Source: an uncultured Actinomycetota bacterium
GTDB taxonomy: Bacteria > Actinomycetota > Actinomycetes > Propionibacteriales > Propionibacteriaceae
Length of the DNA: 64,000 nucleotides
Assembly (NCBI GenBank): GCA_963836855.1
Contig: CAWILN010000004.1
Coordinates: forward strand, 75,577-139,576
Reading direction: 5' to 3'
How positions within the stretch are numbered: the first letter of the stretch is position 1; every line of letters starts with the position of its first letter. The notes beneath the pieces were generated by a model. It worked only from the letters and a program-made list of their open reading frames with translations. It made no database searches and was not told where the DNA came from. A program made the position numbers and the translations under genes. Of this stretch, positions 11,929-59,957 are shown one piece after another.

Positions 11929-13761
11929 ATGCCGTCCGTGACTGAGGAAGGGCTGACGGAATCCGTCGATTCGCCAACGCAATCCCCGGTATCCGAAGTG
12001 TTCGCACTGGCGCGACGGTTCGAGCCAGTGCTGCGTTACACCGAAGGCGAATTGTTCCTTCCCATGCCGGTCGAACGTTACGTTGAGGCGGCCGCTTTGT
12101 TCCGCCGCATGCCAGGGCAGAAGGCGCCCGAGTTGATTGCGCCAGCGACCAAGATCAACCTAGCGACCTTGGTCAGCTACGCCGGCAACAACGGCGGCAG
12201 CGATCTCGAGCTCCACTTCGTCGACAAGCCGTTGGGTCGGTCTGCATACCGCCGCTGGCGGCGTCGCCCAGATCGCCCCCGCTTTCATGGCGGAACCCCC
12301 TTCGCAGTGGTTGGCCTTTTCGGTCGCCTCGTCGATTCACTCATGCGGTTCTCCTTGATCGTGCGAGGCAAAGTTCCTGGCGGCTTCGCCGCTGCGGCCC
12401 ATATCCGCTACAGGGATGCGGGAACCCTGGCACCCACGTACTACGTGCGTGCTTTCCGTGATGCCGGATATCTGGTCTTGCAGTACTGGTTCTTCTACGC
12501 GATGAACGACTGGCGATCGACGTTCAGCGGTGTCAATGATCATGAGGCCGACTGGGAGCAAATCACCCTCTTCCTGACCGAACCCGACGACGGCGGTGAG
12601 CCAGAACTGGCCTGGGTGGCCTTCTCCTCCCATGACGAGGTAGGAGATGACCTGCGAAGGCGCGTGGACGACCCCGACCTGCAACTGGTCGACCGAATGC
12701 ACCCGGTGGTTCATGCAGGTGCCGGATCACACAGCGGCGCGTACCTGGCTGGGGACTACATCGTCTCGGTGTCTCCCCCGGCACTGGAGAAGCTGACACA
12801 GCAGTGGCGCCGATTCGTCCGTACGATCACGCCCTCATCGCGAATCCAACACCGCCCGGGGATTGGTCTCCCGTTCATCGACTACCGGCGCGGGGATGGG
12901 CCGTCGGTGGGACCAGGCAGCGACCAGGCCTGGACCTGCGTTGTGATCGACGACGACACACCTTGGGTGCGTGACTATCGAGGGCTGTGGGGCTACGACA
13001 CCCGCGATCCATTCGGTGGAGAGCGCGCACCGGCAGGTCCACGCTACGAACGCAACGGCTCCACGCGGCTGGCATGGGATCGACCAGTGGCCTGGGCAGG
13101 GCTAGACAAGGTGCCGCCGACGCGAGCCGATGAGCTAGCCGCACTGCAACGGCGTGCCGACGACGTCGAACTCGAGCTCGTCGCCGCGCAGGTACGGCTA
13201 GCTGATGAGATAGACCGGCTGCGGTCACTGCATGAAGGGTTGCGAGCTCAAGCTGTTGAGGGAGCTCGCGCCACAGCGAGCTACGCCGCCGCACAGGCAG
13301 CTGTCGCTGCTACTCGGGACGAGATCGCGAATCTCTCGGCTGAGCAACAAGCAGTGTCGAAAGCTTTGGTGACGCCCTTGCTACCGGAACCTGTGCATGC
13401 ACATCTGCGGCATCGGGCGCTGCCCGATCAAGACGCCCTTCACCCAGCAGGGTGGACATTGCGTTTCTGGGCCGCTATCTCGGTCTCCGTCATGCTTCTG
13501 GCGGTCGCCGGCCTGATCATGTACGGCACGGCCTTGGGCATCACCGGGTTCATCGGGATCATTCTCATCGTTGGGGGCATCGAGGCATTGATCCGCGGCA
13601 GGCTGCTGACATTCCTGGCTGTCGTCGTGATCATGTTTCTGATCTTTATCGGCATCTACCTCGCGGTAACCAATATCAGAGTGGCCATTGCTGGTGCGCT
13701 TGTCTTCGCTGCGTTTGCCTTGCTGCTATCGAACCTGGCGGGCTACCTGCGGCGGCGCTAG
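11929..13761 (+). CDS. Hypothetical protein: Vps62-like N-terminal domain + coiled coil + C-terminal multi-TM anchor
   Basis: Intact 610-aa ORF. The block LVLQYWFFYAMNDW...NDHEADWEQITLF resembles the Vps62/DUF946 signature. An Ala/Glu/Arg-rich heptad-like region lies at roughly residues 400-470. The last ~110 residues form 3-4 hydrophobic helices. Confidence 0.7.
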   Translation: MPSVTEEGLTESVDSPTQSPVSEVFALARRFEPVLRYTEGELFLPMPVERYVEAAALFRRMPGQKAPELIAPATKINLATLVSYAGNNGGSDLELHFVDKPLGRSAYRRWRRRPDRPRFHGGTPFAVVGLFGRLVDSLMRFSLIVRGKVPGGFAAAAHIRYRDAGTLAPTYYVRAFRDAGYLVLQYWFFYAMNDWRSTFSGVNDHEADWEQITLFLTEPDDGGEPELAWVAFSSHDEVGDDLRRRVDDPDLQLVDRMHPVVHAGAGSHSGAYLAGDYIVSVSPPALEKLTQQWRRFVRTITPSSRIQHRPGIGLPFIDYRRGDGPSVGPGSDQAWTCVVIDDDTPWVRDYRGLWGYDTRDPFGGERAPAGPRYERNGSTRLAWDRPVAWAGLDKVPPTRADELAALQRRADDVELELVAAQVRLADEIDRLRSLHEGLRAQAVEGARATASYAAAQAAVAATRDEIANLSAEQQAVSKALVTPLLPEPVHAHLRHRALPDQDALHPAGWTLRFWAAISVSVMLLAVAGLIMYGTALGITGFIGIILIVGGIEALIRGRLLTFLAVVVIMFLIFIGIYLAVTNIRVAIAGALVFAAFALLLSNLAGYLRRR

Positions 13762-13984
13762 TTTCTTGGCGCTTCTCGCGCACGTCGCGCTGGGAGCTGA
13801 CACCGTCGTCACTCTTCGCGAACAAAAAGCACGTTCGCTCATCGTTCCTCCGATCGTCAGCGGCGCAACTCCGACGCTCGAAGCGCGATAGTTTTGGCGC
13901 TTCTCGCGCACGTCGCGCTGGGAGCTGACACCGTCGTCGCTCTTCGCGAACAAAAAGCGCGTTCGCTCATCGTTCCACCGGTCG

Positions 13985-16560
<2,576 letters not shown>

Positions 16561-16620
16561 TTACGACCACCGAAATTTCTCCGACCGGGCGGCCTGACTC
16601 GACACTGGCAGCCTCAACTG

Positions 16621-17073
16621 TCAAGTCGGCCGTCGCACGACGCGACCAGCGACGCGCTCGGGGCGAATGCGGACGAACAGCGTTCGGTTTCCAGTAGCCC
16701 ACGGCACCAGAGAGTCCGAAGCCCACAGATCGGCCAACTCGTCGGGCTCGCGAACAGCACTGGTACGCCCATGGAGCACGATGCTCCAGCCGGTCCGCGT
16801 TTGCTGATCCAGCTCGTCCACTTCGAGCGCGACACTGGTTGGCTGGGCCAGCTCCGCCAAGATCCCGTCGGGCAAAGTGCGGAAGTAGACAGAGCCCTCG
16901 TGCATGGCGTATGTGACCGGCAGGATCTGCGGCAGGTCGGCGGCCTGCCACGCGATGCGACCCAGATGATGGGACTCGATGAGATCGAAGCATTGCCGTC
17001 TGCCGATAGCTTCGAAGTAGCGCTCCGATCTGTCATCGGAGTCAGGCCTTCCGGCTGTGGATGGGTTGATCAT
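16621..17073 (-). CDS. Pyridoxamine 5'-phosphate oxidase-fold (PNPOx-like) protein, paralogue 1
   Basis: 150-aa ORF. The block LGRIAWQAADLPQILPVTYAMHEGSVYFRT...ALEVDELDQQTRTGWSIVLHG is typical of the family. It lies 22 bp downstream of paralogue 2. Confidence 0.75.
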   Translation of the reverse strand: MINPSTAGRPDSDDRSERYFEAIGRRQCFDLIESHHLGRIAWQAADLPQILPVTYAMHEGSVYFRTLPDGILAELAQPTSVALEVDELDQQTRTGWSIVLHGRTSAVREPDELADLWASDSLVPWATGNRTLFVRIRPERVAGRVVRRPT

Positions 17074-17095
17074 TGCTGCGCTCCTCCGAAGATAC

Positions 17096-17533
17096 CTACG
17101 ACTGGTGGACTCGACGACCCGTCATCATCGTCAGCTGCAATTGCACGACCAGCACATGCCGACCCTCCGGCCAAGGCTGGGGCGATTGGCCGACGTCGAG
17201 CATAAGCAATGATTCTTCGTCCAAGGGCTGGGCGTTGCCCACAACGAGAACGCTCCATCCGGTCTGAAGAAACTCGTCGACCTGATCAACCTCGAACGCA
17301 ATGGGATGATCGAACAGCTGGTGAGATGCCTCGGTGTCAATGCCCGTGCGGAACATCAGGGCTTCACTGACCAATGTGTAGTTCATCGGGACGATGCGAG
17401 GTCCGAAGTCAGTGCAGTACCCGAGACGGCCGACATTGGTCGAACCGAGGAGGCGGCGACACTCCTCACGATCGAGGGTCTCGAGGCGCCCTCCCCGGTC
17501 AAGCAATGACCAGCCCGGACTGTCGAAGGTCAT
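17096..17533 (-). CDS. PNPOx-like protein, paralogue 2
   Basis: 145-aa ORF: VGRLGYCTDFGPRIVPMNYTLVSEALMFRT...AFEVDQVDEFLQTGWSVLVVG. Confidence 0.75.
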   Translation of the reverse strand: MTFDSPGWSLLDRGGRLETLDREECRRLLGSTNVGRLGYCTDFGPRIVPMNYTLVSEALMFRTGIDTEASHQLFDHPIAFEVDQVDEFLQTGWSVLVVGNAQPLDEESLLMLDVGQSPQPWPEGRHVLVVQLQLTMMTGRRVHQS

Positions 17534-17618
17534 GGCTGCACATCACCTCTCTCATATGGCTGATCCAACTCTCTCGGCTATCGCGACGCTATGCACGTGC
17601 CGAAGGAGATACGTGTGT

Positions 17619-17632
17619 GGGACCAAAGTCCT
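17619..17632 (-). promoter_or_regulatory. DevR/DosR-box-like palindrome (minus-strand AGGAC-TTTG-GTCCC)
   Basis: It matches the GGGAC-N4-GTCCC core of the mycobacterial DevR consensus TTSGGGACTWWAGTCCCSAA at 13 of 14 core positions. It lies 86-99 nt upstream of the first gene of the PNPOx2-PNPOx1-kinase-regulator string. Confidence 0.45.
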
Positions 17633-17647
17633 CCAATTTTAAGGAGC

Positions 17648-17762
17648 TGCTCGCGCATCGCGCGTTGAACCCGCCGCCGTCGTCGTCCCTCGCAGAGGAA
17701 AAGACGCCTCCGCTCACTCCTCCTCCGAGCGCCGGCGCGCGATTACCGACGCTCGCAGCTCG
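17648..17762. repeat. Single copy of the ~115-bp structured repeat family, inverted relative to 54401-54635
   Basis: GCTCGCGCATCGCGCGTTGAACCCGCCGCCGTCGTCGTCCCTCGCAGAGGAAAAGACGCCTCCGCTCACTCCTCCTCCGAGCGCCGGCGCGCGATTACCGACGCTCGCAGCTCG aligns along its length with the reverse complement of unit 54516-54635. Confidence 0.85.
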
Positions 17763-17802
17763 AAATGATCGTCCCATGGTGCCACCAGCAGCGCGCTGCG
17801 CC

Positions 17803-18306
17803 TCAGCCGCGCTGAATCTGGATACGGCCCGAGGCTGCCTCCGCCGAGGGCTTCGGCATCCGGATCTCCAAGACACCGTCCTTGTAGGTCGCGGAAACAA
17901 CCTCAGGTGACGTACCTGGTGGAAGCCTGACCTGGCGAACGAAACTGCCGTAACGGAACTCGCTATGGAAGCCTTTGTCGAACTTCCCGCGGCTGCTTTC
18001 CCGACGTTCCGCTGCGATCGTCAGGACGCCGCTGTCGATCGACACATCAATGTCGCGATCGGGATCGACCCCTGGTATCTCAGCCATGACCACCAGCTGC
18101 TCGCCATCGACGAACTCTTCGACCTTGATGTCTCGGAACGGCCAGTTCATACCCCCGAAAGGTTGCCAGCCACCCCACAGATCCGTCAGATCCCGCGGCC
18201 AGCGCATCATCATGCCCGCAGACCTGCTCTCCCTGGACTCGCCGGTCTGGGTCTGGGTCTCGTCGGGCTGAGGCTCCGTTTCGTCGGGTTGAGGCTGCGT
18301 ATTCAT
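17803..18306 (-). CDS. Hsp20/alpha-crystallin family small heat-shock protein
   Basis: Alpha-crystallin domain VEEFVDGEQLVVMAEIPGVDPDRDIDVSIDSGVLTIAAER...VSATYKDGVLEIRMPK. I prefer the ATG at 18306 (MNTQPQPDETE...), which follows GGAAGGAG, over the ORF-track start at 18393. Confidence 0.85.
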   Translation of the reverse strand: MNTQPQPDETEPQPDETQTQTGESRESRSAGMMMRWPRDLTDLWGGWQPFGGMNWPFRDIKVEEFVDGEQLVVMAEIPGVDPDRDIDVSIDSGVLTIAAERRESSRGKFDKGFHSEFRYGSFVRQVRLPPGTSPEVVSATYKDGVLEIRMPKPSAEAASGRIQIQRG

Positions 18307-18394
18307 CGGATCTCCTTCCTGTGCGAGCCTTTCTCGCCCATCCATCCACCATGACGCGACATTTTCGGTTACCCAAGACGACCGGCCCGACATA

Positions 18395-19690
18395 TCAGAA
18401 TCCGGCGAACTGGGACTTTAAGACGCTGGCGAGCCGGTCAGCATCCGGGCACGTCTCCGGGTCGAAGCTCATCGTGATCACTAGACGGCTGTCGTAGGAA
18501 AGGGCGGTAAATGAGACAGTGACATTTCCTGTCGCCACGCTCAGCGGTACCACCTCGAGGACCCGGTGACCCATCAGCCTGAGCGCTAGGTCCGGACCGC
18601 GGAGGTCGCTTACGAAGGTGTGCACGAATGGCTGGTGATCAATGAAGTATTGGTATAGGCCGAGCCGAGCCAGCAGCCGGAAGAGCGGTCCCAAGACAGC
18701 TGTGGACGCGCCCCGCTGGTAGTGCTTGGCAGCTCGCATGATCGCTGATACCGCGGTCAGGCGATCGGAGAATCCTCCGCGGGTAGGGAGCTTCACGGGG
18801 ATGACACCGCTACGGTTCCCCAGCTGGTCCGCCTCCGTACGCGTCCTCGCGGCGAACGGTACGGAAACCACCAGAGCGTCCGACCGTTCGCCGCGGTCGG
18901 TGAGCAGCTGCTGCAGCGCACCGGTCAAGGCAGTCAGGACAAGATCATTGACAGTCGCGCCGTTGCTGTGAGCACGCTCGCGGACCTCGTGCAGGTCCAC
19001 GACGGTTGTGAGAATGTTCCGGTGTGGTCCGGTGGGCCTGTTCAGTGAGCACGATTGGGCACGTTCGGCCAGCGAGGGACGGAGCTCGTCCAATGCCGCG
19101 AATAGTCGGCCGGCTACTTTCGGGAGGCGCCGTAGTGAGCGAATGTGCTCTCTCCAGGCGTCCTTTGCGAGCGCGGCTCGGCTTGGATGCGCTTGTGGCA
19201 CGGGTGCGGTCGCGGGGGTAGGTGAGCCGTCGACGAGCCCTCGCAGCACGGCCAGCCCTGCCAACCCGTCTCCCACGACGTGGTGCATCACGATTACCAC
19301 AGCAGCTCGGCCGGCCGTCATGCTAGGAACGAGGGTGGCGGACCATAGGGGACGATCCTCAGGCAGCGGCCTGGTGACGAGGTCAGCGGCAATCTCCAGC
19401 AAGCCGGCATCGTCGGTCTCTGAGTGTGGCGTGACGACCGTCACATGATCATCGATCTTGAAGCCGGAGTCATCAACCCAGATCGGCCGTCCGCAGCCGA
19501 GCGGGACTTTCTGCAAGCGTTGCCGCAGCCGCGGGACCGCCGAGATCCGCTGCTGCAGAACTGACCGCAACAGACCCACGTCCAGCCCGCTGGACGCCTC
19601 CAAGATCAGTACCGCACCGACCTGTAGAGGTGGCGGATGCCGTCGTGAGACGAGCGACATCAGATCGTCGGCGCTCACCCTCTCAATCAT
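18395..19690 (-). CDS. Wax ester synthase/diacylglycerol acyltransferase (WS/DGAT, Tgs-like)
   Basis: Intact 431-aa ORF with the catalytic HHxxxDG motif (HHVVGDGLAG). Confidence 0.85.
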   Translation of the reverse strand: MIERVSADDLMSLVSRRHPPPLQVGAVLILEASSGLDVGLLRSVLQQRISAVPRLRQRLQKVPLGCGRPIWVDDSGFKIDDHVTVVTPHSETDDAGLLEIAADLVTRPLPEDRPLWSATLVPSMTAGRAAVVIVMHHVVGDGLAGLAVLRGLVDGSPTPATAPVPQAHPSRAALAKDAWREHIRSLRRLPKVAGRLFAALDELRPSLAERAQSCSLNRPTGPHRNILTTVVDLHEVRERAHSNGATVNDLVLTALTGALQQLLTDRGERSDALVVSVPFAARTRTEADQLGNRSGVIPVKLPTRGGFSDRLTAVSAIMRAAKHYQRGASTAVLGPLFRLLARLGLYQYFIDHQPFVHTFVSDLRGPDLALRLMGHRVLEVVPLSVATGNVTVSFTALSYDSRLVITMSFDPETCPDADRLASVLKSQFAGF

Positions 19691-19890
19691 CGTTAGTCAG
19701 AATCCGGTGTCGATCGAAAGGTGTCCAGAGCCGAACGCTTGGAATGACTTAGGCAACTTTCAGGACACTGCAGGACCTTCGACTCTTCATGGGACATCCG
19801 CGGCGCGCAAGCTTGAACCGCGGGGCGGTGAAGCCCGGCCTTCACGCAGCCATTTTCACCGCCCCCCAACCCAACGAACGGAGTCTGGTC

Positions 19891-20349
19891 ATGACCTCAT
19901 CACAGAATGAGAGACAACGGTCCACCAAGGATTTCGTCGAGCTGTCGGAGGCCAAATGTCAGGAACTTCTGGCACAGCACACCGCAGGCCGGATTAGTTT
20001 TGTGGCCGGGGACGGGCCGCTGATCCTGCCGGTGACCTACCAGTACCGCAACGGCAGCGTGATCTTCCGAACGTCTCCAGTCGGACCTCTTGCAGAGCTC
20101 GTCCGGCGAACGAGTGTGGCCTTCGAGATCGACGAAATCGACGAACAGAACAAATCGGGCTGGAGCGTTCTGGTGCTCGGATTCGCCGAGGCGATGGCTC
20201 ACAACTATCTGCTCACATCGGCCTGGGAGACTGGCCCGGTGCCCTGGGCGGACGGAGTTCGGAACCTATTTGTCGAGATCAAGCCGCGAAAGATCAGCGG
20301 CCGGGCGGTAGGGGGCTTCTTCACGACGCCAACGCCTGAAGCTCGCTAG
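19891..20349 (+). CDS. PNPOx-like protein, paralogue 3
   Basis: ATG at 19891 follows ACGGAG. The block AGRISFVAGDGPLILPVTYQYRNGSVIFRT...AFEIDEIDEQNKSGWSVLVLG parallels the other two paralogues. Confidence 0.75.
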   Translation: MTSSQNERQRSTKDFVELSEAKCQELLAQHTAGRISFVAGDGPLILPVTYQYRNGSVIFRTSPVGPLAELVRRTSVAFEIDEIDEQNKSGWSVLVLGFAEAMAHNYLLTSAWETGPVPWADGVRNLFVEIKPRKISGRAVGGFFTTPTPEAR

Positions 20350-20363
20350 GTCATTCGGAGTCG

Positions 20364-21380
20364 CTATGAGGACCCGGGTCCGCCCACGGCTCGAGTAACT
20401 CCAAAAGCCAGCCTTCGTACTGGGTACTCCATGCCCGCGACCACAGCCCGCGGCGCATCTTGGAGTGCGCTCTCCCAGGCGATCGCACGAGTAACGCAGC
20501 CGGTACTCCGCGCTAGTGCCACCCAGCGAAGGAGTTCTTCCCGGCTGCCCAGGTCGGTGAAGGGCTCGAGGTAGGCGTCCCAAATCCGCAGCACGCGCGG
20601 GTCGTCGATCCGCCCGGCGTCGTTCCGCACCCTTGCGTGGAAGGCGATCGAGTTCAAGGTGGCGAGCATCGTCCCGAAGGGATGTCCCACAGACGCGTCG
20701 CCCCAATCGATGATCCGCACTGAGGACAGATCGTCCACTTTCCCCGACCAGCAGACGTTGTTGGAGTGCAGGTCCTCGTGCTGCAGAGTGTCCGCCACCG
20801 GCGTGGCGGCGAGCTCGGCGCACCGGTAGTCGAGCCCCCGTAGTCGGTGCTCGAGGGCGGAGGCTTCGTCGGCGGTCAGCCCGCTGTCCTTGGTTGGCTG
20901 AGCGGCGAGTTCGGCGAGGAGCCTGCGGTACTCCAGAGGCAGCTGCGCTGGGCCCGGTCCGGGATTCCCGTTGCTAAGAGGCGGAGCCTGTGTTCGGCCA
21001 GGGCGAGCTGCGCTTCAGCGTATCGGGGCAGCAGTCTCTCCCAATAGGCCCACAACCGTCTGGCTCGGCTCTGGATCGGAGTGTCGGGCCGCCATCGCGG
21101 GTGAGCGACCATGCTCGCGCGTCGTCGTAGGCAACAACGTCAAGCGCCAGGCCTGGACAGATCTCACCGAGCAGGGCTAACAGTCCGGGTTCTTGTGCCG
21201 TCCCGCTGGCGTTGACCTTGAACCAGACCCGACCCTGGGTGGTCTCGAACCTGATGGTGCTCGACCAGACACGGCCGTGCGGCTGCTCCCACTCGCCGGG
21301 TAAGCCGGCCGCTGCGTGGTTCGAGCTGTGCCGCCACCCCAAGCCCGTACCTCCTCGACGAAGGCGCTGCTGGTCCACAA
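20364..21380 (-). pseudogene. Aminoglycoside/choline-kinase-type phosphotransferase (APH family), at least 4 frame disruptions
   Basis: Homology runs through three frames: WTSSAFVEEVRAW | VAAQLEPRSGRLT | GEWEQPHGRVWSSTIRFETTQGRVWFKVN...RSRAEPD | LWAYWERLLPRYAEAQLALAEH...IPDRAQ | LPLEYRRLLAEL...LQHEDLHSNN...IDWGDASVGHP. The shifts are near 21337-21340 (CCCC), 21298-21300 (GGG), ~21055 and ~20948. Confidence 0.75.
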
Positions 21381-21405
21381 CCCGACCCGATCTAGCGTCC
21401 CCCGC

Positions 21406-21798
21406 TCAGCGCTCAAGGAGTCTCTTGAGGGTTGCCAGGTCCGTCCGGATCGCCGTCGCGTCCGCCTCATAGTCGTCGTCCGACTGGTCCGCTCGGCGGC
21501 GAAGCGTGAATACCACCTCGCAGCCGGTGCCATCGGCGATCACACGCATCGGGTTGTCGAAGCTGGTTCCATCGGGCAGCCGTACCTCATGGTCGAGGAC
21601 GAAATGTGGGTTCTCCGGCACGATGATCACCTCGATCTCACCCATCGGTGAGTCGGCGAACCAATGTCCGTCCCGCTCCTCAATAGCGCCGCTTAGCCCC
21701 GCCGCCCAGTTCGGCAGGTTCGCCGGTTTCATCGCGTACGCGTAGACCTCGGCAGCCGGCCGCTCGATGTATGTGCTGAGGTGTTGCGACTCGCTCAT
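21406..21798 (-). CDS. SRPBCC-superfamily (polyketide cyclase/AHSA1-like) protein
   Basis: 130-aa ORF. The N-terminus STYIERPAAEVYAYAMKPANLPNWAAGL is typical of SRPBCC ligand-binding proteins. Confidence 0.6.
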   Translation of the reverse strand: MSESQHLSTYIERPAAEVYAYAMKPANLPNWAAGLSGAIEERDGHWFADSPMGEIEVIIVPENPHFVLDHEVRLPDGTSFDNPMRVIADGTGCEVVFTLRRRADQSDDDYEADATAIRTDLATLKRLLER

Positions 21799-28689: not shown

Positions 28690-28925
28690 ATCACTTACTG
28701 CTAGCTGCGAGCGTCGGGAATCGCGCGCCCCGCGTGCTGAGCCAGGCTGGCGCGCCGCTGTTCTGGACGAGCGAGCGTGCAGACACGCATTTCGTCTGCG
28801 AGCGAGCCAGGAAGACAGCGGCTAACAGTGCCAGCCTCAGCGAGCGGAGCGAGCAATTTACGCGGAGCGAGCGAGGGGTTCTTCCTCGGCGAGCGACGAA
28901 CTAGGCGGATCAAGAGCACGCGATG
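28690..28925. repeat. Two diverged units of the structured repeat family
   Basis: CTGCGAGCGTCGGGAATCGCGCGCCCCGC... and ...GCGGAGCGAGCGAGGGGTTCTTCCTCGGCGAGCGACGAACTAGGCGGATCAAGAGCACGCGATGCGCGAGG align with blocks of units 54401-54635. Confidence 0.65.
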
Positions 28926-28955
28926 CGCGAGGAGCTTTTTAGAAAGGAAACAGCC

Positions 28956-38568: not shown

Positions 38569-40358
38569 CTACTTCTGGCACCCAGGCCGAGGTAGTCGTA
38601 CTCGCCGTAGGCATCGGTAACGAAGATGTTGCGTGGCATTCTTCGACCGCACCAGCAGGCTCTTGGAGTAGACGCCTGGGTAGATGACGGCCTCCTCCAT
38701 GACCCGCTTGTCGATCGCGCCCCAATCTTGGTTGCGCTTGTCCGTGTCGAGTTCGGTCAGGGCCTTGTCGAGCATCTGATCGACCTCCGGGATGCGGACG
38801 CTGGTATTGGAGGAACCGCCGGTCGGTCGGATGACCCGCGAGTCGACGATCTGGGACAAGAAGCCGAAGCCATCAGGCCAGTCGGCCGCCCAGCCGTTGA
38901 GCGCCAGACCCAGCTTGTTCTTCACCACGTACGGCGGAAGGCCGGCGTATTGGGCGAAGTAGTCGCCTTGCGGGTACGGCTTCAGCGTGAGCTTGATGCC
39001 CGACTCGAGCCAACGCCTGCTGGAACGCCTCGGCAGTGGCCTTCTCCTTAGGCCGCTCGGCCCGGTAGGCGATGTTGGTCTCGAAGCCGTTCGGCTGCCC
39101 GCAGGCTTCCAGTGACTTCTTCGCCGCATCGAGGTCGCCCTTGTGATCTGGACCGTTCGGGTACAGATCGAAGGATCTGATATGGCCCGGGATGGTCGGC
39201 GGCAGAAGCGTCGTTGCCAGGTCTCCACCGGCAAACTGGCCACCGTATGCGGTCTGGTAGGCGGTGTCGGTCCATGGCGTACATGATCGCCTTGCGGCAC
39301 TCGATGTTGTTGAGCGGCGGAACTGTCGGGTTGATCGAGGTGTACCAGAGCCGCGCACTCGAGCGGGTTGTCCGCGTTCTCCTTGAGGGTCGGATCCTGC
39401 AGACACCCGGCTCTGTGCGGCCGGTTGAACTCCGGTTGCGACGACGTCGACGTCGAGGTCGCCGCTGATGAGCCGGTTGTCAATGTCATCGGCATTGACA
39501 TTGAGCGTGACCTCGATGCGATCAGGGAGCGCCTTGCGGTTCGGGTCGGTCGCGGGATCCCATTGATCGTTGCGAACCAGATTGAAGCTCTTGCCGGGCT
39601 GCAGGTCGGCAAACTTGTACGGACCGGTGGAGACAATCGAGTTCCGGTATTTGGCGCCGGTGTCCTTGTCCTTGGGGACCGGCATCGTGTTGGGTTGCTG
39701 GCCGAGATAGTCGAAAGCTGCGAACGGCTTCTTGGTATGGAAGACGATCGTGTACTCATCTGGCGTCTCGATAGCCGAGTCGGTGTTCATGTTCGGTGTC
39801 TTGTAGGGACCCTTGTAGCCGCTCGGTAGGTCGAGGATGCGCCTCCCAGTACGCCGGTCCGTTGGGGAAGGTTTGCTTGTCGGTGGAACGCAGTACCGCG
39901 TACTTCACGTCGGCCGAGGTGACCTCGGTGCCGTCGTCGAACTTCACACCCTGGCGCAGCTTGTAGGTCCAGGTCTTGGCGTCCATTGGCTCGCCTGGCC
40001 AGGGCGCTTCGGCGAGATCCGGCACCAACTGGTTGCCCTCCTTGCCAGGTGCGGATTTGAACATCATGAGCGAGCGACCGTACAGCCGCGCGAAATTCCA
40101 CGAGTAGGCGTAATAGGTCTCGCCGGGGTCCAGGGTGTCCCAGTCACCGGCGTTGGCGAACTTCAGCGTGCCGCCCTTCTTGTCGGAGGGATTGACAACG
40201 CTGGTGGATGCAGCGTTGAAGCCGGCCTGAGCGCTCTGGTTGCTCGACCCTTGCTGGCTGCTAGCCCCGCCACCGCCACCGCAGGCGGCCACCAACAGCG
40301 CGGCCGAAACGCCAACGGCGGCCAGGCTCCTAGCTCGCCAGGATCTCGAATGGTTCAT
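38569..40358 (-). pseudogene. Peptide/nickel ABC substrate-binding protein (family 5, OppA/DppA-like), at least 6 frame disruptions
   Basis: ATG at 40358 and a lipoprotein-like signal ending LLVAACGG. Homology hops between frames: ...FPNGPAYWE | ILDLPSGYKGPYK...AIETPDEYTIVFH...GVQPAAQSRV | LQDPTLKENADNPL | SARLWYTSINPTVPPLNNIECRKAIMYAMDR | TAYQTAYGGQFAGGDL...ALARVG | IKLTLKPYPQGDYF...SKNAT | NIFVTDAYGEYDY. The shifts are near 39838, 39404, 39360, 39268, 39001 and 38632. Confidence 0.8.
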
Positions 40359-45638: not shown

Positions 45639-46874
45639 TTAGGCGAACAGCTCGCCGAGCAACTCGGGGCCGATGGCGATGGGGGCGGGGCGGTAGGCGG
45701 GTGGCTGCGTGCCCATCAGCTCGCGCACCAGGAAGTCCCAGCAGCGCTTGCGGACATAGGCCAGGCAGTCGATGAACGTGTGCTCGGCCCCGGGCACGAT
45801 GAGCAGGTCGAAGTCCTTGTCGGCGGCGATGAGCCGGTCGGCCAGCCGCAGCGTGTGGTCCGGGTGGACTTGGTCGTCCGTTTCGCCGTGGATGAGCAGC
45901 AGCTTGCCCGCCAACCGGTCCGCGAGGTCAACGTTGGAGGCACGGGCCCAGGCCTCGGGATTGTCCGCGCCGTCGTAGGTCTCCACGAAGCCCAAGTTGA
46001 AGTAGCGGGCGTCGTGCGGGCCGGAGAGGGCGACTCCGGCCTTGTACACCTCGGGGAAGTCCACCATCGCCCGCGCTGTGGCGAACCCGCCTCCGGAGTG
46101 GCCGATCGCGCCCACCCGGTCCAGGTCCATCCACGGCCGGGTCCGGGCCAGCTGCCGCAGCGCCGCGACATGGTCGGCCAGGCAGCCCGCATCGGCCAAG
46201 TGGCCGTATGAGGCGTCGTGGAAAAACTTGCTCCGCCCTGGGGTGCCTCGCCCATCCACCGCCACCACCACGAAACCCAGCGTTGCGATGGGTTCCGCGT
46301 CGAGGCCCATCCCGCCGGGGTCGAAGCAGGGGGCGACCCGGTTGACCTGCGGGCCGGGGTAGACGCTGTCCACCACCGGGTAGCGCTGGGCGGGGTCGAA
46401 CCCCCGCGGCCGGTATAGCACCCCATAGATGTCCGTCACCCCGTCCGCCGCCTTGACGCGGAACCGTTCCGGCGGCGTCCAGCCGGTGGTGGTGAGCTTG
46501 GTGATATCGGCGCGCTCCAGCTCGACCAGCACCCGCCCGGACCAGTCGCGAACCGTCGTCACTGGCGGGGTGTCCACAGTGGATGCCGAGTCGATGAAGT
46601 ACTCCATGGTGTCCGGCATGGTGACGATGTGGTCCAGCTCGTCGTCGGTGACCTTGGCGAAGCCGGAGCCGTCCAGACCGACCCGGCACACCGTGCGCCG
46701 GTACGGATCCTCGTCAACCAGCCCCGAGACGGTGAAGTACGCCACCCGCTCGGCCTCGTCGACGTGCAGGATCTGCCGCACCGCCCACTGGCCGGAGGTG
46801 ACCTGCCCCAGCAGCTCGCCGGTGCGCAGGTCGTACCGGTACAGGTGGCCCCAGCCGTCCCGCTCACGTCTCAA
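45639..46874 (-). pseudogene. S9-family serine peptidase (DPP-IV/prolyl oligopeptidase-like), 5'-truncated
   Basis: The catalytic domain is intact (GHSGGG nucleophile elbow, VAVDGRGTPGRS). Only ~190 residues of beta-propeller precede it. The frame opens just after a TGA near 46900, and an unrelated gene ends at 46993. Confidence 0.65.
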
Positions 46875-49923: not shown

Positions 49924-50011
49924 TGGCGGTGGCGGCGGGATTTGAACCCGCGGAGGGTTGCCCCTCACGCGCTTTCGAGGCGCGCTCTTTAGGCCGCTCA
50001 GACACGCCACC
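49924..50011 (-). tRNA. tRNA-Ser (anticodon CGA), encoded CCA
   Basis: The minus strand reads GGTGGCGTGTCTGAGCGGCCTAAAGAGCGCGCCTCGAAAGCGCGTGAGGGGCAACCCTCCGCGGGTTCAAATCCCGCCGCCACCGCCA. It has a 7-bp acceptor stem, the anticodon loop CUCGAAA, a long variable arm and the T-loop GGTTCAAATCC. Confidence 0.95.
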
Positions 50012-53548: not shown

Positions 53549-53878
53549 CTAGCGGGCAGAGGCGTTGGCACCCGCCGTCGGCGGGAATGCGATTGGGTGG
53601 TCGACTGCCGGTGGGAAGTCGCCGTGGCGGTGCACGATGCGCCACTGCCCGTCCTCGCGCCGGTACACATGGGTAACGCGCAAGGTGTAGGTCCGCGGCT
53701 CGCCGGCAACCTTCACGCGATTGTGCTCGTACCCGACGGTGTAGGCCAGGTCACCGCTGGCGCCCGCCGCAACAAGCTCGAAGTCATATTCCGTCGAGTC
53801 GGAGAACCAGGACGCAACATTATGGAATATCGCGCTGAGATCATTCCAACCGACTCGTGAGTAAGGGATATGGCACAA
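53549..53878 (-). pseudogene. SnoaL/DUF4440-like (NTF2-fold) protein, apparently lacking its N-terminal helices
   Basis: GDLAYTVGYEHNRVKVAGEPRTYTLRVTHVYRREDGQWRIVHRHGD is the C-terminal sheet of the fold. Only ~25 residues precede the core, and the 5' end overlaps the TetR ORF start by 22 nt. Confidence 0.5.
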
Positions 53879-54400
53879 CCACGATCGCTGACATCGCCCG
53901 CGATGCCGGGGTCGCGGTCGAGACGGTTTACGCCGCGTTCCGCAACAAGCGCACCCTGCTGCGTCAGGTCTGGTTCGTCAGCTTCCGCGGCGACGAAGAG
54001 GACATTCGACTCTGGGATCGGCCGGAGATCCATGCGGTGATCGCCGAGCCGGATCTGGCCCTGCGGTTCAAGGCGCAAGCGGCCGTCTATCCGGCGGTGT
54101 TTCGGCGAATCACCCCGCTACTGCTTATGTTGCAGGGCGCGGCCGCCAGCCAGCCGGACGCGGCGGCGATGCTGGCTGAGTTTGACGAGCGGCGGCTGGA
54201 CGCGGCCGCGAAATACCGCGCGCGGCGGTTGCCACGGGCGAGTTGGCAGTCAGTGAAGACGAGTGCCGCGACGTGCTTTGCTCTGGGCGACTTTGGACGG
54301 CGCCCTGTGGCATCAGCTGGTTGCCGAACGCGGTTGGTCGGACGAGCGATTCGCGGCCTTGCTGGGCAAACTTTGGATTTCCGCATTGGTCACCCCCTAG
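53857..54400 (+). pseudogene. TetR-family regulator, missing the first HTH helix and carrying two frame disruptions
   Basis: It starts directly at ...SKGYGTTTIADIARDAGVAVETVYAAFRNKRTLL, with no preceding RxRILxAAxxLF helix. The C-terminus runs through three frames: ...AAAKYRA | ELAVSEDECRDVL | WATLDGALWHQLVAERGWSDERFAAWLGKLWISALVTP-stop at 54398-54400. Confidence 0.65.
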
Positions 54401-54635
54401 AACCGGGAAATCGCGCACCGCCGCACGGAGGAGAAACGAGCGGAGGCGTTCTTCCTCTTGCGAGCGACGACGACGGCGGCCGAATCCACGCGCGATTACG
54501 CGAGAGTCAAGGCCGATTGCGAGCGTCGGGAAATCGCGCACCGCCGCACGGAGGAGGAACGAGCGGAGGCGTTCTTCCTCTGCGAGCGACGACGACGGCG
54601 GCGGAATCCACGCGCGATTGCGCGAGCAATCACCA
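54401..54635. repeat. Two tandem units of the ~115-bp structured repeat family (54401-54515, 54516-54635)
   Basis: The units are near-identical when read directly: ...GGGAAATCGCGCACCGCCGCACGGAGGAG(A/G)AACGAGCGGAGGCGTTCTTCCTCT(T)GCGAGCGACGACGACGGCGGC(C/G)GAATCCACGCGCGATT(A/G)CGCGAG... Confidence 0.9.
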
Positions 54636-54910
54636 AACAAATTGGAGGGTGTCAGCCTCCCGCTACGCCAAGCGGGCCCCCGTTGACCAACACCCTCCAG
54701 GCTCCACGCCACAACCCTTCCCCAGAAGTGGGATCGGCTGGAATCTCCCCGACGGCTGGTCTAGCCCCCAAAGACCGCCTCACTTATCTTGAACAGTGCG
54801 GCAATTGTGCGACCACGAACAGCAGACGGACAATGAGTGGTCGTCGAGGCCGCTGAGGTCGCCAGATCTGACCGGCCTGACACGACGTTTTCCTAATGTG
54901 GCAAGGAAAG

Positions 54911-58257: not shown

Positions 58258-58634
58258 GAGGATCCCGCGAGCGCCTTCTGCTTCAGCTGGTCAAACTCGG
58301 CCTGAGTGATTGCACCCTGGTCCAGCAACGTTTGAGCGGATGCGATCTGATCAGCCGGACTCGACATGTGGATGATTTGTGGCGGCACGTAGGGCTCCTC
58401 CCGTGGTCCCTTCGCAGCCGCATGACGCTCGGCCATTCCCTTGCCCCGGGCGATGACATAGATCAGCGCGCTCAAGAACGGCACGATGATCAAGAAAATG
58501 ATCCACACCGCCTTCCACCAGCCGCTCAGATTCTCATCACGGAACAGATCGACAACGATCTGGAACAGCACGACCAGGTAGCAGGCGAAAACGAAGGCCC
58601 ACACCAGCAGCCAAAAGAAACTCGAGAAGTCCAC
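58254..58634 (-). CDS. PLDc_N membrane domain + SHOCT domain protein
   Basis: WKAVWIIFLIIVPFLSALIYVIARG is the PLD-nuclease N-terminal TM pattern. The C-terminal LLDQGAITQAEFDQLKQKAL is the SHOCT pattern. Confidence 0.7.
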   Translation of the reverse strand: MDFSSFFWLLVWAFVFACYLVVLFQIVVDLFRDENLSGWWKAVWIIFLIIVPFLSALIYVIARGKGMAERHAAAKGPREEPYVPPQIIHMSSPADQIASAQTLLDQGAITQAEFDQLKQKALAGSS

Positions 58635-58775
58635 AGCAGCACCCTCCCTCGGGTTATTGGGCTGAGTATTGCGCGGTCAGTTCACCCGGTACATCACTCT
58701 CCGGGGGTGAGTCTCCCGCCACCGCGATTCCGACGCTCGCAGCGGATGTGCCCCAGCACTGGTAGACATGGACAA

Positions 58776-59957
58776 ATGGGTAGCCATGTCATCGTGGCGG
58801 GGGCGGGAATAGTCGGCCTGGCGACCGCTTTGGAGCTAACGCGCCGCGGCCATTCCGTAACCGTGCTCGAGAAGGAATCGAGCCTGGCTCAACATCAGAC
58901 CGGCAACAACTCTGGCGTCATTCACTCCGGGCTCTATTACAAGCCCGGCAGCCTCAAGGCAACGCTGGGCACGGCTGGAGCAACGTCGATGCGGCGCTTC
59001 GCCGAAGACAATGGGGTCTTTGTCGAGATCTGCGGCAAGCTCGTGGTAGCAACCGACCCGGTACAGATCCCGGCTCTCCAGGAGCTCTATCGACGTGGCC
59101 AGGCCAACGGCGTTCCTTGTCGGATCATCAGCGCCGGGGAGGCCAAGGAATACGAGCCCTACATCGCGGCCGTGTCCGCGATACGCGTTGAATCGACAGG
59201 CATCGTTGACTTCCGTGGAGTTTGCGACGCGCTGCGAAAACACCTCGAGCAGGCGGGCGGTGAGGTCTGCTTGGATCAACGGATCGTTGGAATCGCGTCG
59301 CGTCCCGATGGTGTGACGGTCACCACCAAGGCGGGCGAGTTCAAAGCGGACCAGTTCGTCAACTGTGCCGGGCTGCACAGTGATCGGCTGGCCCGATTGG
59401 CTGGATTGAAGCCATTAGTACGGATCGTCCCGTTCCGCGGCGAGTACTACGAGTTGAAGCCGCACGCATCGCACCTCGTTAGAGGTCTGATCTATCCAGT
59501 GCCGGATCCGGCGTTCCCATTCCTCGGTGTGCACCTGACGCGCATGATCAACGGATCCGTTCATGCCGGCCCGAACGCGATCTTCGCGCTGGCCCGGGAG
59601 GGGTACACCAAGCTAGCGATCAACCCTCGCGACGTCGCGGACAGCCTTCGCTGGCCAGGGCTTTGGAGATTGGGGAAGCGGTTCTGGCGTACCGGAGTCG
59701 ACGAAACGGTGAGATCGCTATCCAAGAAGCGTTTTCTGGCAAGCCTTCGAGAGCTCGTCCCGGAGCTTCCGGATGATTCTCTATTACCAGCGCACGCCGG
59801 GGTACGTGCCCAGGCGCTGCACCGTGACGGAAGACTGGTCGATGACTTCTATTACGAGCGGGCGCCCCGTCAGGTCCATGTGCTGAACGCGCCCTCGCCA
59901 GCGGCCACAGCCTCACTGGAGATCGCCAAGCGCATTGCCGATGAGCTGGAGGTCTGA
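58776..59957 (+). CDS. lhgO: L-2-hydroxyglutarate oxidase (FAD-dependent)
   Basis: The ATG at 58776 gives MGSHVIVAGAGIVGLATALEL...HQTGNNSGVIHSGLYYKPGSLKA. The upstream 148 codons of ORF 58332..59957 are antisense to 58254..58634. Confidence 0.8.
   Translation: MGSHVIVAGAGIVGLATALELTRRGHSVTVLEKESSLAQHQTGNNSGVIHSGLYYKPGSLKATLGTAGATSMRRFAEDNGVFVEICGKLVVATDPVQIPALQELYRRGQANGVPCRIISAGEAKEYEPYIAAVSAIRVESTGIVDFRGVCDALRKHLEQAGGEVCLDQRIVGIASRPDGVTVTTKAGEFKADQFVNCAGLHSDRLARLAGLKPLVRIVPFRGEYYELKPHASHLVRGLIYPVPDPAFPFLGVHLTRMINGSVHAGPNAIFALAREGYTKLAINPRDVADSLRWPGLWRLGKRFWRTGVDETVRSLSKKRFLASLRELVPELPDDSLLPAHAGVRAQALHRDGRLVDDFYYERAPRQVHVLNAPSPAATASLEIAKRIADELEV

Follow-up and report, generated by a model that had tools for sequence, protein, structure and literature searches.

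A dispersed family of structured ~122-nt repeats in an uncultured actinobacterial soil lineage

MIRUs form variable head-to-tail arrays in the operon intergenic regions of actinobacterial hosts, with units that abut stop and start codons; they measure 46-101 bp, are not long hairpins and are defined by small overlapping ORFs. ERIC sequences were reportedly found by Wilson and Sharp in 2006 to be unusually conserved between species. They are co-transcribed, with reported effects on mRNA decay, and ERIC-type elements are described with terminal inverted repeats (TIRs), target duplications and a flanking 5'-TA-3' (PMC3184786). The RPEs of Rickettsia (~105-146 bp) occur between genes and in-frame within unrelated protein genes, to which they add a peptide segment (PMC10969869; PMC3184786). 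REPs are palindromes of 20-40 nt that bear a GTAG or CGTC tag; in a REPIN two of them, inverted, make one symmetric hairpin, and RAYT-mobilised REPs flank a single-copy RAYT (Y1 HUH) gene. In CGTC REPs the stem is 8-9 bp, the loop 4-5 nt and the tail CCA; they usually form head-to-head dimers and are without a dedicated transposase (PMC3733652).

Here we analyse a window of 64 kb, meaning the whole stretch of DNA under study, which carries four loci of a ~122-nt repeat. The family is previously undescribed, and is set apart from ERIC, RPE, REP, Correia and MIRU by their descriptions. A preliminary description, made from the letters of the window, had left the choice between a MIRU/REP-type element, a MITE with no obvious transposase and a family of structured RNA genes; our data place the repeat between these, as a non-autonomous dispersed element with a covariation-supported structure and sequence constraint. 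Judging from sequence comparison, it is probably a new non-autonomous element of ERIC/RPE/Correia-like kind, co-transcribed and carrying a constrained RNA hairpin.

The likeness to ERIC/IRU (~127 bp) lies in the near-equal size (~122-128 nt), the long imperfect palindrome, the location at gene 3' ends and in intergenic DNA that is probably transcribed, the use of either orientation and the internal insertion/deletion variants. In contrast, there is no sequence relationship and no TA flank, the host belongs to another phylum, and the outer stem P1 is only 6-7 bp long and variable; head-to-tail arrays and a one-stranded set of GAGCG motifs belong to the new family and not to ERIC. Size, shape and location fit, and sequence and flank do not, which makes it an analogue of ERIC rather than a member. 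With RPE it shares palindromic repeats of similar size, the want of a known transposase, and in-frame insertion in unrelated genes, here an AlkZ-like glycosylase and a SAM methyltransferase. The resemblance is one of behaviour, with no sequence homology; the host of the new family is a free-living, high-GC actinobacterium and its copies are mostly intergenic. Unlike RPE, it encodes no single conserved peptide, since its three forward frames are open and two are used.

Like REP/REPIN sequences, the units are GC-rich extragenic hairpins downstream of genes, where the flanking ORFs are co-directional or convergent, with stems kept by compensatory change, an unpaired tag beside the stem and no target duplication seen; their ~35-nt mini forms are REP-like and the core contains CGTC. 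For this last reason a CGTC-tagged REP was considered, and rejected because its stem and loop dimensions do not fit (PMC3733652). Each unit is a single asymmetric 122-nt hairpin of four helices, arranged in head-to-tail arrays, rather than an inverted REP doublet. Correia/CREE, RUP and classical MITEs resemble the new family in being non-autonomous, 100-160 nt in length and able to form a long hairpin; they often share the transcript of the gene at whose 3' end they lie, and relatives differ in which sites they occupy (PMC3184786). Classical MITEs have conserved TIRs of at least 20 bp that match a parent IS, and target duplications (TA for Correia), whereas the new family has neither: its sole TIR is the 6-7-bp P1, with at least 15 sequences among 73 copies. 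It resembles MIRU in its actinobacterial hosts, its variable head-to-tail arrays and the abutting of flanking stop and start codons; it differs in conserving structure and not coding, and the start codon within the unit is not conserved.

Copies in the window and in related genomes

Between them, Tandem Repeats Finder (TRF), nhmmer and a covariance model recover each of the four loci reported at first, with more or less the full set of eight units, to within ~10 nt of the positions given (Table 1). Six units are strong (54389-54634 on the plus strand, 17642-17763 and 13767-14137 on the minus strand), and a diverged, composite copy occupies 28697-28945. An nhmmer profile built from the six finds all of them again in the 64-kb window, with E-values of 2e-24 to 3e-36. 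Two further matches, one at 28697-28863 (E = 1e-4) and the other at 28846-28945 (E = 3e-5), are weak; below E = 0.1 the profile has no other match in the window.

Table 1 Repeat units and their parts in the 64-kb window. Scores are from a covariance model built from 73 copies and run with filters off.
Feature	Position	Strand	Description
Unit A1	54389-54510	+	Tandem with A2; 78.0 bits, non-canonical P1 and P1a pairs
Unit A2	54512-54634, with tail to 54641	+	Full length; 123.7 bits, E = 4e-23
A2 P1	54515-54520 / 54626-54631		5' arm GATTGC / 3' arm GCAATC
A2 invariant motif	54521-54529		GAGCGTCGG
A2 P2	54531-54539 / 54612-54619		5' arm / 3' arm GCGCGATT
A2 P3	54541-54545 / 54600-54604		5' arm CCGCC / 3' arm GGCGG
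A2 purine loop	54549-54562		CGGAGGAGGAACGA
A2 P4	54563-54569 / 54577-54583		GCGGAGG / CCTCTGC; loop 54570-54576
A2 3' segment	54584-54599		GAGCGACGACGACGGC
A2 3' motif	54620-54625		GCGCGA
A2 tail	54632-54641		A-rich
Unit B	17642-17763	-	Single, full length; 132.9 bits
Unit C1	13767-13888	-	98.5 bits
Unit C2	13895-14016	-	101.2 bits
Unit C3	14022-14137	-	79.9 bits; internal deletion
5' fragment of canonical unit	28697-28724	+	AGCTGCGAGCGTCGGGAATCGCGCGCC; directly upstream of D; from sequence, nhmmer and motif scan
Unit D	28725-28852	+	Diverged; 42.9 bits, E = 1e-6
3' half of canonical unit	28846-28945	+	…GAGCGAGCGAGGGGTTCTTCCTCGGCGAGCGACGA…GCGATGCGCGAGGAGCT and T/A tail; nhmmer E = 3e-5, model positions 49-125
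Possible 25-nt fragment of element 5' end	58720-58749	-	GCTGCGAGCGTCGGAATCGCGG; inside FAD-oxidoreductase ORF; nhmmer E = 0.35, motif scan; membership uncertain

Two tandem units had been placed at 54401-54635. Both are present (TRF: 54404-54626, period 123, 1.8 copies, 96% matches), but the upstream one is 5'-truncated: the 3' end of a TetR gene and the TAG stop (54398-54400) stand in place of P1 and GAGCGTCGG. Unit B, first given as a single inverted copy at 17648-17762, is recovered on the same strand with the highest score in Table 1. It lies between an HSP20 gene (17803-18393, -) and a PNPOx-like gene (17096-17533, -), sense to both.

The three inverted tandem units announced near 14 kb are all found by the covariance model, and TRF reports 2.9 copies of period 128 at 13766-14135 (95% matches). 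C1-C3 are head-to-tail units of a diverged subfamily, joined by the linker CAAAACTAT, with helices P1 (GCGCTTC/GAAGCGC), P3 (CTGAC/GTCAG) and P4 (GCGAAC/GTTCGC). The array lies between the TAG of an ORF at 11929-13761(+) and a LuxR-type response regulator at 13985-14836(-), whose ORF runs ~65 codons into C3 and C2. Synteny with the related locus L033 breaks at this array, and no empty site is readable there.

At 28.7 kb, the two diverged units described at 28690-28925 are indeed family members, but really consist of one diverged unit, D, flanked by a 5' fragment and a 3' half. Unit D keeps the helices with a different sequence (P3 CCGCTG/CAGCGG, P4 GCAGAC/GTCTGC) and is predicted to fold at -79.4 kcal/mol (z = -5.9). 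The half-unit stops 1-2 nt short of an ATG at 28947. From their sequence, the two flanking pieces look like one unit that D interrupts or to which it is fused. The 28.7-kb locus thus lies upstream of a gene and the response-regulator ORF enters the 14-kb array, so that the earlier statement that every copy lies outside genes, at their 3' ends, does not hold. The units also give rise to spurious ORFs, lengthen real ones and likely break assemblies.

The count of further copies proposed in the preliminary description turned up many in other genomes, and the units are not local duplications. A pattern scan of genome contigs yielded at least 112 loci; of those listed, 76, from 26 assemblies, hold full-length members according to nhmmer. 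The host assemblies are uncultured MAGs labelled Actinomycetota/Propionibacteriaceae, a soil lineage. The covariance model makes 110 matches in 562 kb of family loci, or about one extra locus per 25-30 kb, a density that resembles the four loci per 64 kb of the window. A well-defined, abundant repeat family is thereby added to a large uncultured soil actinobacterial lineage with none described, and the covariance model can be used for masking and annotating these MAGs.

As first supposed, the repeat belongs to no recognised repeat or RNA family. Rfam at the gathering threshold finds one tRNA in the whole window and no repeat match; in E-value mode the sole family matched by the units is mir-572, which has a threshold of 80 bits and scores 26-30. 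Plasmid sequences searched by blastn with the consensus unit gave no match, the one match of a pattern scan of viral contigs was rejected by the covariance model (L115), and a literature search on the core motif returned nothing but unrelated primer sequences. An IS and a CRISPR array had been set aside from the start, in agreement with our results: Pfam detects no transposase or integrase among the 38 ORFs of the window, conserved 9-10-nt linkers take the place of unique spacers, and no cas domains occur in the scanned ORFs. No transposase was found between paired elements in the loci, and the genes between inverted pairs are housekeeping genes. A tblastn search of ~0.9 Mb for a HUH/RAYT transposase, with one approximate IS200/IS605-type (IS608) TnpA query, gave as its best match a spurious one, a PlsC-type acyltransferase. 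The GC skew of the window is flat and replication direction is not readable from it; an exact-protein look-up of the window's kinase returned no record.

Unit architecture and covariation

On the top strand a unit reads, in order, a short leader, P1, a basal module, P2, P3, a large internal loop that is rich in purines and conserved in sequence, the apical hairpin P4 with its U-rich loop, and a C/A-rich tail that closes the unit. P1 (NNNNGC/GCNNNN) is an outer stem whose sequence is free and whose complementarity is always kept, with at least 15 complementary types in the 73 copies. The basal module (GA·AG, GCGU/GCGC and a CGG bulge) is invariant; if a protein partner exists, this hairpin is a ready bait. 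The motifs GAGCGTCGG, CGGAGGAG, GCGAGCGACGACG and GCGCGAG are unpaired and near-invariant, and the 5' loop GAGCGTCGG is not the reverse complement of the 3' loop GCGCGA. A coding role for the unit was ruled out: a start codon follows GGAGG only in some subfamilies, unit length is not divisible by three, and it is simply the GC content that keeps every reading frame open.

Among 73 distinct copies, compensatory changes occur in the four helices P1-P4 and maintain them, as expected of a structured RNA. Counting each orthologous locus as a separate data point, as in the orientation statistics below, 95.1% of 2107 cells are paired, compared with 85.9% after shuffling and 26-53% when the alignment is slid as a control. 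Double changes affect 16 of the 29 pairs, in 165 cells, and the covariation score of 0.265 (versus 0.106) was reached in 0 of 500 shuffles. An identical signal would come from selection on a single-stranded DNA hairpin. The outer pairings proposed in the preliminary description are backed by this covariation. The inner pairing, GAGGAGGAACG/CGTTCTTCCTC, is thermodynamically possible in the 54.5-kb units and without covariation support; the conserved apical helix is another, GCGGAGG/CCTCTGC, replaced by GCGAAC/GTTCGC in the 14-kb units.

The two strands are not equivalent. The top strand is predicted to fold at -60 to -62 kcal/mol (z of -1.8 to -3.1) versus -48 to -53 kcal/mol for the complement (z of -0.7 to -1.2); unit A2 folds at -59.8 kcal/mol with z = -3.1 on the plus strand, against z = -0.7 for its complement. 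Likewise, 95.1% of cells pair on the top strand and 89.5% on the complement, a bias carried mainly by pairs 15·132 and 61·81 and balanced elsewhere (33 G·U versus 31 A·C cells).

In E. coli, IHF and gyrase bind to BIMEs; by analogy, the repeat might act at the DNA level, its hairpin (or cruciform) or its GAGCG array being the site for a nucleoid-associated protein, a topoisomerase or a segregation protein. We consider this decidedly unlikely. Hundreds of copies along the chromosome (by extrapolation), invariant unpaired motifs with four to five GAGCG per unit, and the occurrence of both orientations would suit such a site; yet the GAGCG motifs are all on one strand, folding is stronger on the top strand than on its complement, orientation is correlated with that of the neighbouring genes, and double-stranded binding sites have no need of four co-varying helices.

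The 3' tail is A-rich (a fraction of 0.51-0.75, versus 0.17 in the background) and belongs to the inserted segment. It bears on the proposal that the units are duplicated factor-independent terminators, which is extremely improbable. GC-rich hairpins do stand where genes end, also in the gap between two convergent ones, and a weak hairpin with a T-run exists inside the 14-kb units. However, on the top strand it is an A-rich tract that follows the hairpin, and on the other strand T precedes rather than follows; nothing terminator-like is found at the element base, and the total of such matches stays within shuffled expectation. Copies also sit between genes that are probably co-transcribed, and the in-frame copy in the AlkZ-like gene is retained in many species, which is incompatible with efficient termination.

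Gene context and orientation

Many copies lie 0-12 nt from a stop codon and 10-30 nt from the next start, in operons or within ORFs. With gene calls from a self-trained codon model, stops fall within ~12 nt of P1 at 19 of 35 convergent-gene and 15 of 57 upstream-gene positions. Between co-directional genes 32 copies are in sense and 11 antisense (p = 0.002), and the upstream gene shares the strand of the element in 57 cases and lies on the opposite one in 29 (p = 0.003). Sense orientation is a preference and not a rule, as shown by the 11 antisense copies of 43. Flank profiles are flat beyond position -6, with no direct repeat and no TA flank.

It is very unlikely that the units are small RNA genes with transcripts of their own, whether they encode a multi-copy sRNA or an RNA that serves a protein as guide or partner. 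The covariation-supported structure with its conserved loops, a conservation far above that of four-fold degenerate (near-neutral) sites, and an A-rich 3' tail and conserved 5' module resembling defined ends would all fit. Against this, the flat flank profile holds no conserved promoter-like sequence upstream, the tail offers no U-tract terminator, terminator-like matches are not above shuffled expectation, and Rfam has no match; placed so close to stops and starts, in operons and ORFs, the copies leave no room for separate transcription signals.

The copies that survive sit next to stop codons and are mostly in sense; they are therefore probably co-transcribed, as position, orientation and strand-biased folding together suggest. 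The hairpin of the top-strand RNA would then be a 3'-end or intercistronic structure that may affect mRNA stability, processing or translational coupling.

Gain, loss and sequence constraint

Copies are gained and lost at single sites, including in-frame within genes; they are amplified in tandem, trimmed and, at some orthologous sites, present in either orientation. One intergenic site is filled in L011 and empty in L098. One intragenic site, in an AlkZ-like glycosylase gene, is filled in L077 and L114 and empty in L113 at the DNA level. Target-site duplication, whose absence had already been noted, is not seen in flank profiles, and none longer than 2 nt is seen at these filled and empty sites, where a flank identity of 80-88% limits the calling of ends and of 1-2-nt duplications. 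The AlkZ-like protein fits its profile (PF06224) end to end around an insert of 41-42 aa (~126 nt), and orthologues exist with and without the insert, in a distribution that does not track protein relatedness. A second in-frame insertion, in a SAM methyltransferase in L101, uses another reading frame; all three forward frames are open and two are seen in use within genes. That an in-frame unit is kept within a DNA-repair gene in many species bears on whether such elements are junk or under selection. An origin of P1 from a palindromic target was ruled out at the AlkZ site, where the empty site has no such palindrome.

Tandem copy number varies between orthologous loci (2 in L032 vs 1 in L054; 3 in L022 vs 1 in L089), and tandem units are head-to-tail with conserved 9-10-nt linkers. 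An internal deletion between GCGAGCG direct repeats accounts for the pair L058 and L109, considered as a possible empty site, and there are ~35-nt mini forms trimmed to the basal hairpin. At three of ~19 orthologous sites the orientation is flipped.

Orthologous copies are 0.90-1.00 identical, against 0.51-0.85 at flanking four-fold degenerate sites and 0.87-0.985 at codon position 2. Mean identity is 0.746 within genomes versus 0.754 between them, and within-genome homogenisation is absent. Non-orthologous copies of different species reach 98% identity. Several rare P1 variants are common to orthologues: GGGCGC in L004/L045, CACTGC in L014/L066, GTTCGC in L006/L053/L080 and GGCTGC in L032/L054. 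This suggests inheritance by descent and not refilling; these orthologues are 92-100% identical while four-fold sites are at 51-85%. Turnover at hot spots could be another source of the high conservation, and the flipped orthologous sites point there. With orthologues 90-100% identical and synonymous sites near saturation, the family is a natural test, for ERIC/REP/RPE-type elements, of junk versus selection.

It is possible, if rather improbable, that the element is purely selfish: non-autonomous, of no use to its host, and only seemingly conserved, with hot spots that are repeatedly vacated and refilled from an active pool whose master sequence is fixed by transposase recognition. This reading would account for the three flipped sites, for the patchy AlkZ insert, for the near-identity of non-orthologous copies across species, and for clustering at stop codons, expected if only harmless insertions survive. 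It sits poorly with the rare P1 variants common to orthologues and their high identity beside diverged four-fold sites, and it does not predict the sense bias, unless insertion is coupled to transcription.

Under the favoured reading, of a co-transcribed element with a constrained RNA hairpin, movement would occur in trans, through a putative enzyme that recognises single-stranded nucleic acid by the conserved basal hairpin; such an enzyme would need no terminal inverted repeats and make no target duplication. The near-constant sequence across species would be explained by an RNA-level role or by a dedicated protein acting on the GAGCG motifs. A bolder version, to which we give little weight, is that the family is not a decaying MITE but a structured element under purifying selection at of the order of at least 100 loci per genome in at least 26 species, with a putative dedicated protein that reads the basal hairpin and the one-stranded GAGCG motifs. 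This protein might be an RNA-binding regulator of operon mRNAs, or else a single-strand (DNA or RNA) mobilisation machinery of a new kind, without terminal repeats or target duplication, excising precisely and flipping copies in place.

Within the window, constraint can be read at unit B, whose orthologue lies in the syntenic locus L033 at 3301-3418: the element is 90.5% identical, versus 60% at four-fold sites.

Repeat units and their range

Sequence reading bears out the two head-to-tail units proposed at 54401-54635. Tandem Repeats Finder gives this array a period of 123 with 96% matches, and the array at 13766-14135 a period of 128 with 2.9 copies and 95% matches. An nhmmer profile built from six window units recovers the same six at E = 2e-24 to 3e-36 and finds two diverged matches, with E = 1e-4 and 3e-5, at 28697-28945; no other match in the whole window falls below E = 0.1. 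A search of the window with filters off, using a covariance model of 73 copies drawn from many genomes, gives the six units 78-133 bits and 28725-28852 a score of 42.9 bits (E = 1e-6). The window has 63.7% G+C, and a Pfam scan of 38 ORFs shows ordinary chromosomal genes. As the preliminary description held, none is a transposase; none is an integrase either.

The family is real and widespread. A degenerate pattern made from three conserved blocks, scanned against a single genome for each GTDB species, matches at least 112 stretches. Full-length members occur in 76 of the matches listed (nhmmer, E = 1e-16 to 1e-29), spread over at least 26 assemblies; the other 36 listed are chance matches in other phyla. 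Host assemblies among the matches listed, a lower bound on the taxonomic range, are all soil or environmental MAGs of 62-70% G+C, labelled Actinomycetota or Propionibacteriaceae, save L033 (L-numbers denote loci on contigs of other genomes), labelled Chloroflexia. L033 is 82% identical to and collinear with window 14174-21483 and has the orthologous repeat copy; its contig (CAWJHK010000007.1; MAG 'uncultured Chloroflexia bacterium') is probably mislabelled or wrongly binned.

The 562 kb of verified loci hold 110 covariance-model matches, about one additional non-seed locus per 25-30 kb; the window holds four loci in 64 kb. By extrapolation rather than count, we estimate roughly a hundred loci, or more, in each genome. 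Plasmid sequences gave no match to the family, and a single pattern match in a phage collection was discarded, being rejected by the covariance model. The element had not been recognised as a known RNA family, and an Rfam search indeed matched nothing; we found nothing relevant on its core motif in the literature. The description that fits the family best is that of a new, modular hairpin element, non-autonomous and ERIC/RPE-like.

A four-helix fold kept by compensatory change

An alignment of 73 distinct units, which have a single architecture in common, gave the anatomy, described here for the top strand (+ at 54.5 kb). The 5'-most helix is the outer stem P1 (NNNNGC/GCNNNN). In the basal module, an invariant GAGCGTCGG lies opposite (T)GCGCGA and can form GA·AG and GCGU/GCGC with a CGG(A)A bulge; neither side ever varies, which puts this pairing beyond a covariation test. 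P2 is AATCGCGCG/CGCGCGAT and P3 is CCGCC/GGCGG. A large internal loop has two purine-rich strands of conserved sequence, CGGAGGAG… and GCGA[GA][GC]GACGACGACGG. The apical helix P4 (GCGGAGG/CCTCTGC) carries an 8-nt U-rich loop, and a C/A-rich tail follows P1', the 3' arm of P1; the A fraction at positions +9 to +12 is 0.51-0.75 (background, 0.17). Each unit has four or five GAGCG motifs, all on the top strand, and a 13-nt block, CTGCGAGCG[T/A]CG, in two places, following the P1 5' arm and following the P4 3' arm.

Subfamilies swap whole helices for complementary alternatives: TAGGCGCCCG/CGGGGCGCC for P2, CTGGT/ACCAG or CTGAC/GTCAG for P3, GCGAAC/GTTCGC for P4, and at least 15 sequence types for P1. 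In the 73-unit alignment, made by MAFFT without fitting to the structure, which was itself drawn from these sequences, 95.1% of 2107 cells are paired, against 85.9 ± 0.4% in shuffles and 26-53% in slid controls. A covariation count, a check of the kind suggested with the preliminary description, supports the four helices, with double-sided changes in 16 of 29 pairs (165 cells) and a covariation score of 0.265 versus 0.106, equalled by none of 500 shuffles. P1, P2 and P3 also come out of an independent RNAalifold prediction. The inner pairing GAGGAGGAACG/CGTTCTTCCTC, proposed earlier, does appear in the minimum-energy fold of the 54.5-kb unit, but not as a family-wide signal: its 4 compensatory cells are no better than shuffles. 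One subfamily may adopt it as an alternative conformer.

Folding is biased towards the top strand. Three window units fold at -59.8, -62.1 and -61.9 kcal/mol, versus -53.1, -48.3 and -53.5 for their complements, with z-scores of -3.1, -1.8 and -3.0 versus -0.7, -1.2 and -1.2. In the alignment, the corresponding difference in paired cells (bottom strand, 89.5%) is mainly due to two positions. A DNA-level binding site is one rival reading. We favour a constraint that would act on the top-strand RNA hairpin, through mRNA stability, processing or coupling, or on recognition of the invariant single-stranded motifs by a putative protein.

The element occurs in three sizes: 122 nt, about 35 nt and about 165 nt. 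The shortest form consists only of P1, basal module and tail (examples in the table). The longest has an extra block ahead of P2', the 3' arm of P2 (L016, L012, L079, L096, L043), a trace of which, GCGAGCGGAGCGAGCAAT, is kept by the window's 28.8-kb copy. In the orthologous pair L109 and L058 an interior deletion has its boundaries exactly at two GCGAGCG direct repeats, which makes the ends the constant part of the element.

Position, turnover and constraint

Elements tend to sit beside stop codons and to be oriented in the sense direction. Gene calls come from a self-trained codon model that reproduces the window's Pfam-supported genes. Across 94 element loci, some orthologous and hence non-independent, so that p-values are optimistic, elements between co-directional genes are sense in 32 cases and antisense in 11 (binomial p = 0.002), and the gene on the 5' side lies on the same strand in 57 and on the opposite strand in 29 (p = 0.003). 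The distance from P1 to the stop codon is at most about 12 nt for 15 of 57 upstream same-strand genes and for 19 of 35 convergent genes; the next start codon often follows 10-30 nt past the tail. Common ends read T|AGCTGC or TG|AGCTGC, and TGAGCTGC on the other strand, so the element supplies stop codons in both directions. All four window loci, two per strand, are sense to an adjacent gene. Terminators and free-standing sRNA genes are further rival readings; our own is that the element would be co-transcribed with neighbouring genes.

Copies are gained and lost, including in frame within genes. The intergenic site filled in L011 (7669-7790), where a gene's stop codon falls in the element's tail, is empty in the orthologous L098. 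An AlkZ-like DNA glycosylase gene in L077 has a unit inside it, and the PF06224 match spans the protein end to end around it. A database search returns orthologues of two length classes, about 395-420 and 350-360 aa, whose alignment shows a clean block of 41-42 residues, present or absent. Two carriers (orthologues P0001 and P0002) are 86-88% identical to insert-free P0008, P0011 and P0015 and only 77-83% identical to P0003-P0019, which carry the insert; this departure from protein relatedness implies repeated gain or precise loss at one and the same position. In the DNA the site reads GACC-CGCTGC…GCAGCG-CAAAA (126 nt) in L077 and L114, and L113 has a single codon in place of the element. The empty site shows no palindrome and no duplication longer than 2 nt, so P1 and tail belong to the element. 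In L101 a SAM-methyltransferase is interrupted by a second in-frame copy, which uses another reading frame.

Orthologous loci vary in the number of tandem copies (2 vs 1 and 3 vs 1), and at three orthologous sites element, leader and tail are in opposite orientation between species (L041 vs L081; L007 vs L091; L113 and L077 vs L114). P1 types, flank profiles and filled and empty sites reveal no fixed-sequence terminal inverted repeat. As noted earlier, no target-site duplication is seen: none in the flanks, and none longer than 2 nt in the filled/empty comparison. No transposase was seen near elements at the loci examined; tblastn over about 0.9 Mb with an approximate IS608 TnpA query gave only a spurious match, in a PlsC-type acyltransferase. 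Movement would rely on a putative enzyme, acting in trans, to which the basal hairpin is presented as a single strand for recognition.

The element evolves far more slowly than synonymous sites. In nine orthologous pairs elements are 0.897-1.00 identical, against 0.51-0.85 at four-fold degenerate sites and 0.87-0.985 at second codon positions of flanking genes; the clearest pair is L004/L045 (0.983 vs 0.508 at four-fold sites). Copies at unrelated loci of different species reach 98% identity. Mean copy identity is 0.746 within genomes versus 0.754 between them, which rules out ordinary concerted evolution as the cause. The rival here is a purely selfish element with hot-spot turnover. The flipped sites point to some turnover, and the rare P1 types common to orthologues favour descent over refilling; both processes may operate.

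Neighbouring genes and side observations

Features in the window and at orthologous loci
Feature	Location	Strand	Remark
DosR/DosS-like dormancy cluster	window 13985-19690		holds two repeat loci
LuxR-type response regulator	window 13985-14836	-	dormancy cluster
Two-GAF HisKA_3 histidine kinase	window 14812-16548	-	dormancy cluster
PNPOx-like protein	window 17096-17533	-	dormancy cluster
HSP20	window 17803-18393	-	dormancy cluster
WS/DGAT triacylglycerol synthase	window 18395-19690	-	dormancy cluster
tRNA-Ser(CGA)	window 49924-50011	-	sole Rfam or ARAGORN match in window
TetR-family gene	window 53857-54400		beside 54.5-kb units
25-nt stretch GCTGCGAGCGTCGGAATCGCGG	window 58720-58749	-	similar to element 5' end
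FAD-dependent oxidoreductase ORF	window 58332-59957		contains the 25-nt stretch
~35-nt form	L073 ~4360
~35-nt form	L058 ~3341
~35-nt form	L023 ~1714
Subfamily-2 unit	L077 4293-4480		adjoins extra ~40-nt deletion derivative
Subfamily-2 unit	L113 4075-4197
Subfamily-2 unit	L114 3984-4133		opposite orientation, ~30-nt internal insertion
111-nt insertion	L041 6126-6237		missing from orthologous L081

The GerE domain of the response regulator ends near residue 216 with no stop after it, and the ORF runs about 65 more codons into C3 and C2 (13985-14190), two units of the 14-kb array; the L033 orthologue stops about 8 codons past the conserved end. The extension is either a repeat-derived C-terminus or a local frameshift. 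Near 54240-54265 the TetR-family gene passes from one reading frame to another, with the N-terminal HTH in ORF 53857-54792 and the C-terminal end in the frame closing with TAG at 54398-54400; the split reflects either a pseudogene or an indel in the assembly. Several window genes give partial Pfam-profile matches (4301-5077, 38873-39790, 45639-46874); like the split gene, they may reflect indel errors in MAG-derived sequences. The 25-nt stretch may be an element remnant or a chance match.

All three subfamily-2 units lie directly after the stop of the AlkZ-like gene. The L041 insertion is built from another small hairpin repeat, CGTTTCGCAGCAC[AG]GCCGTC[GA]AAACG, present in two copies; it represents a second, unrelated repeat family of the same lineage.
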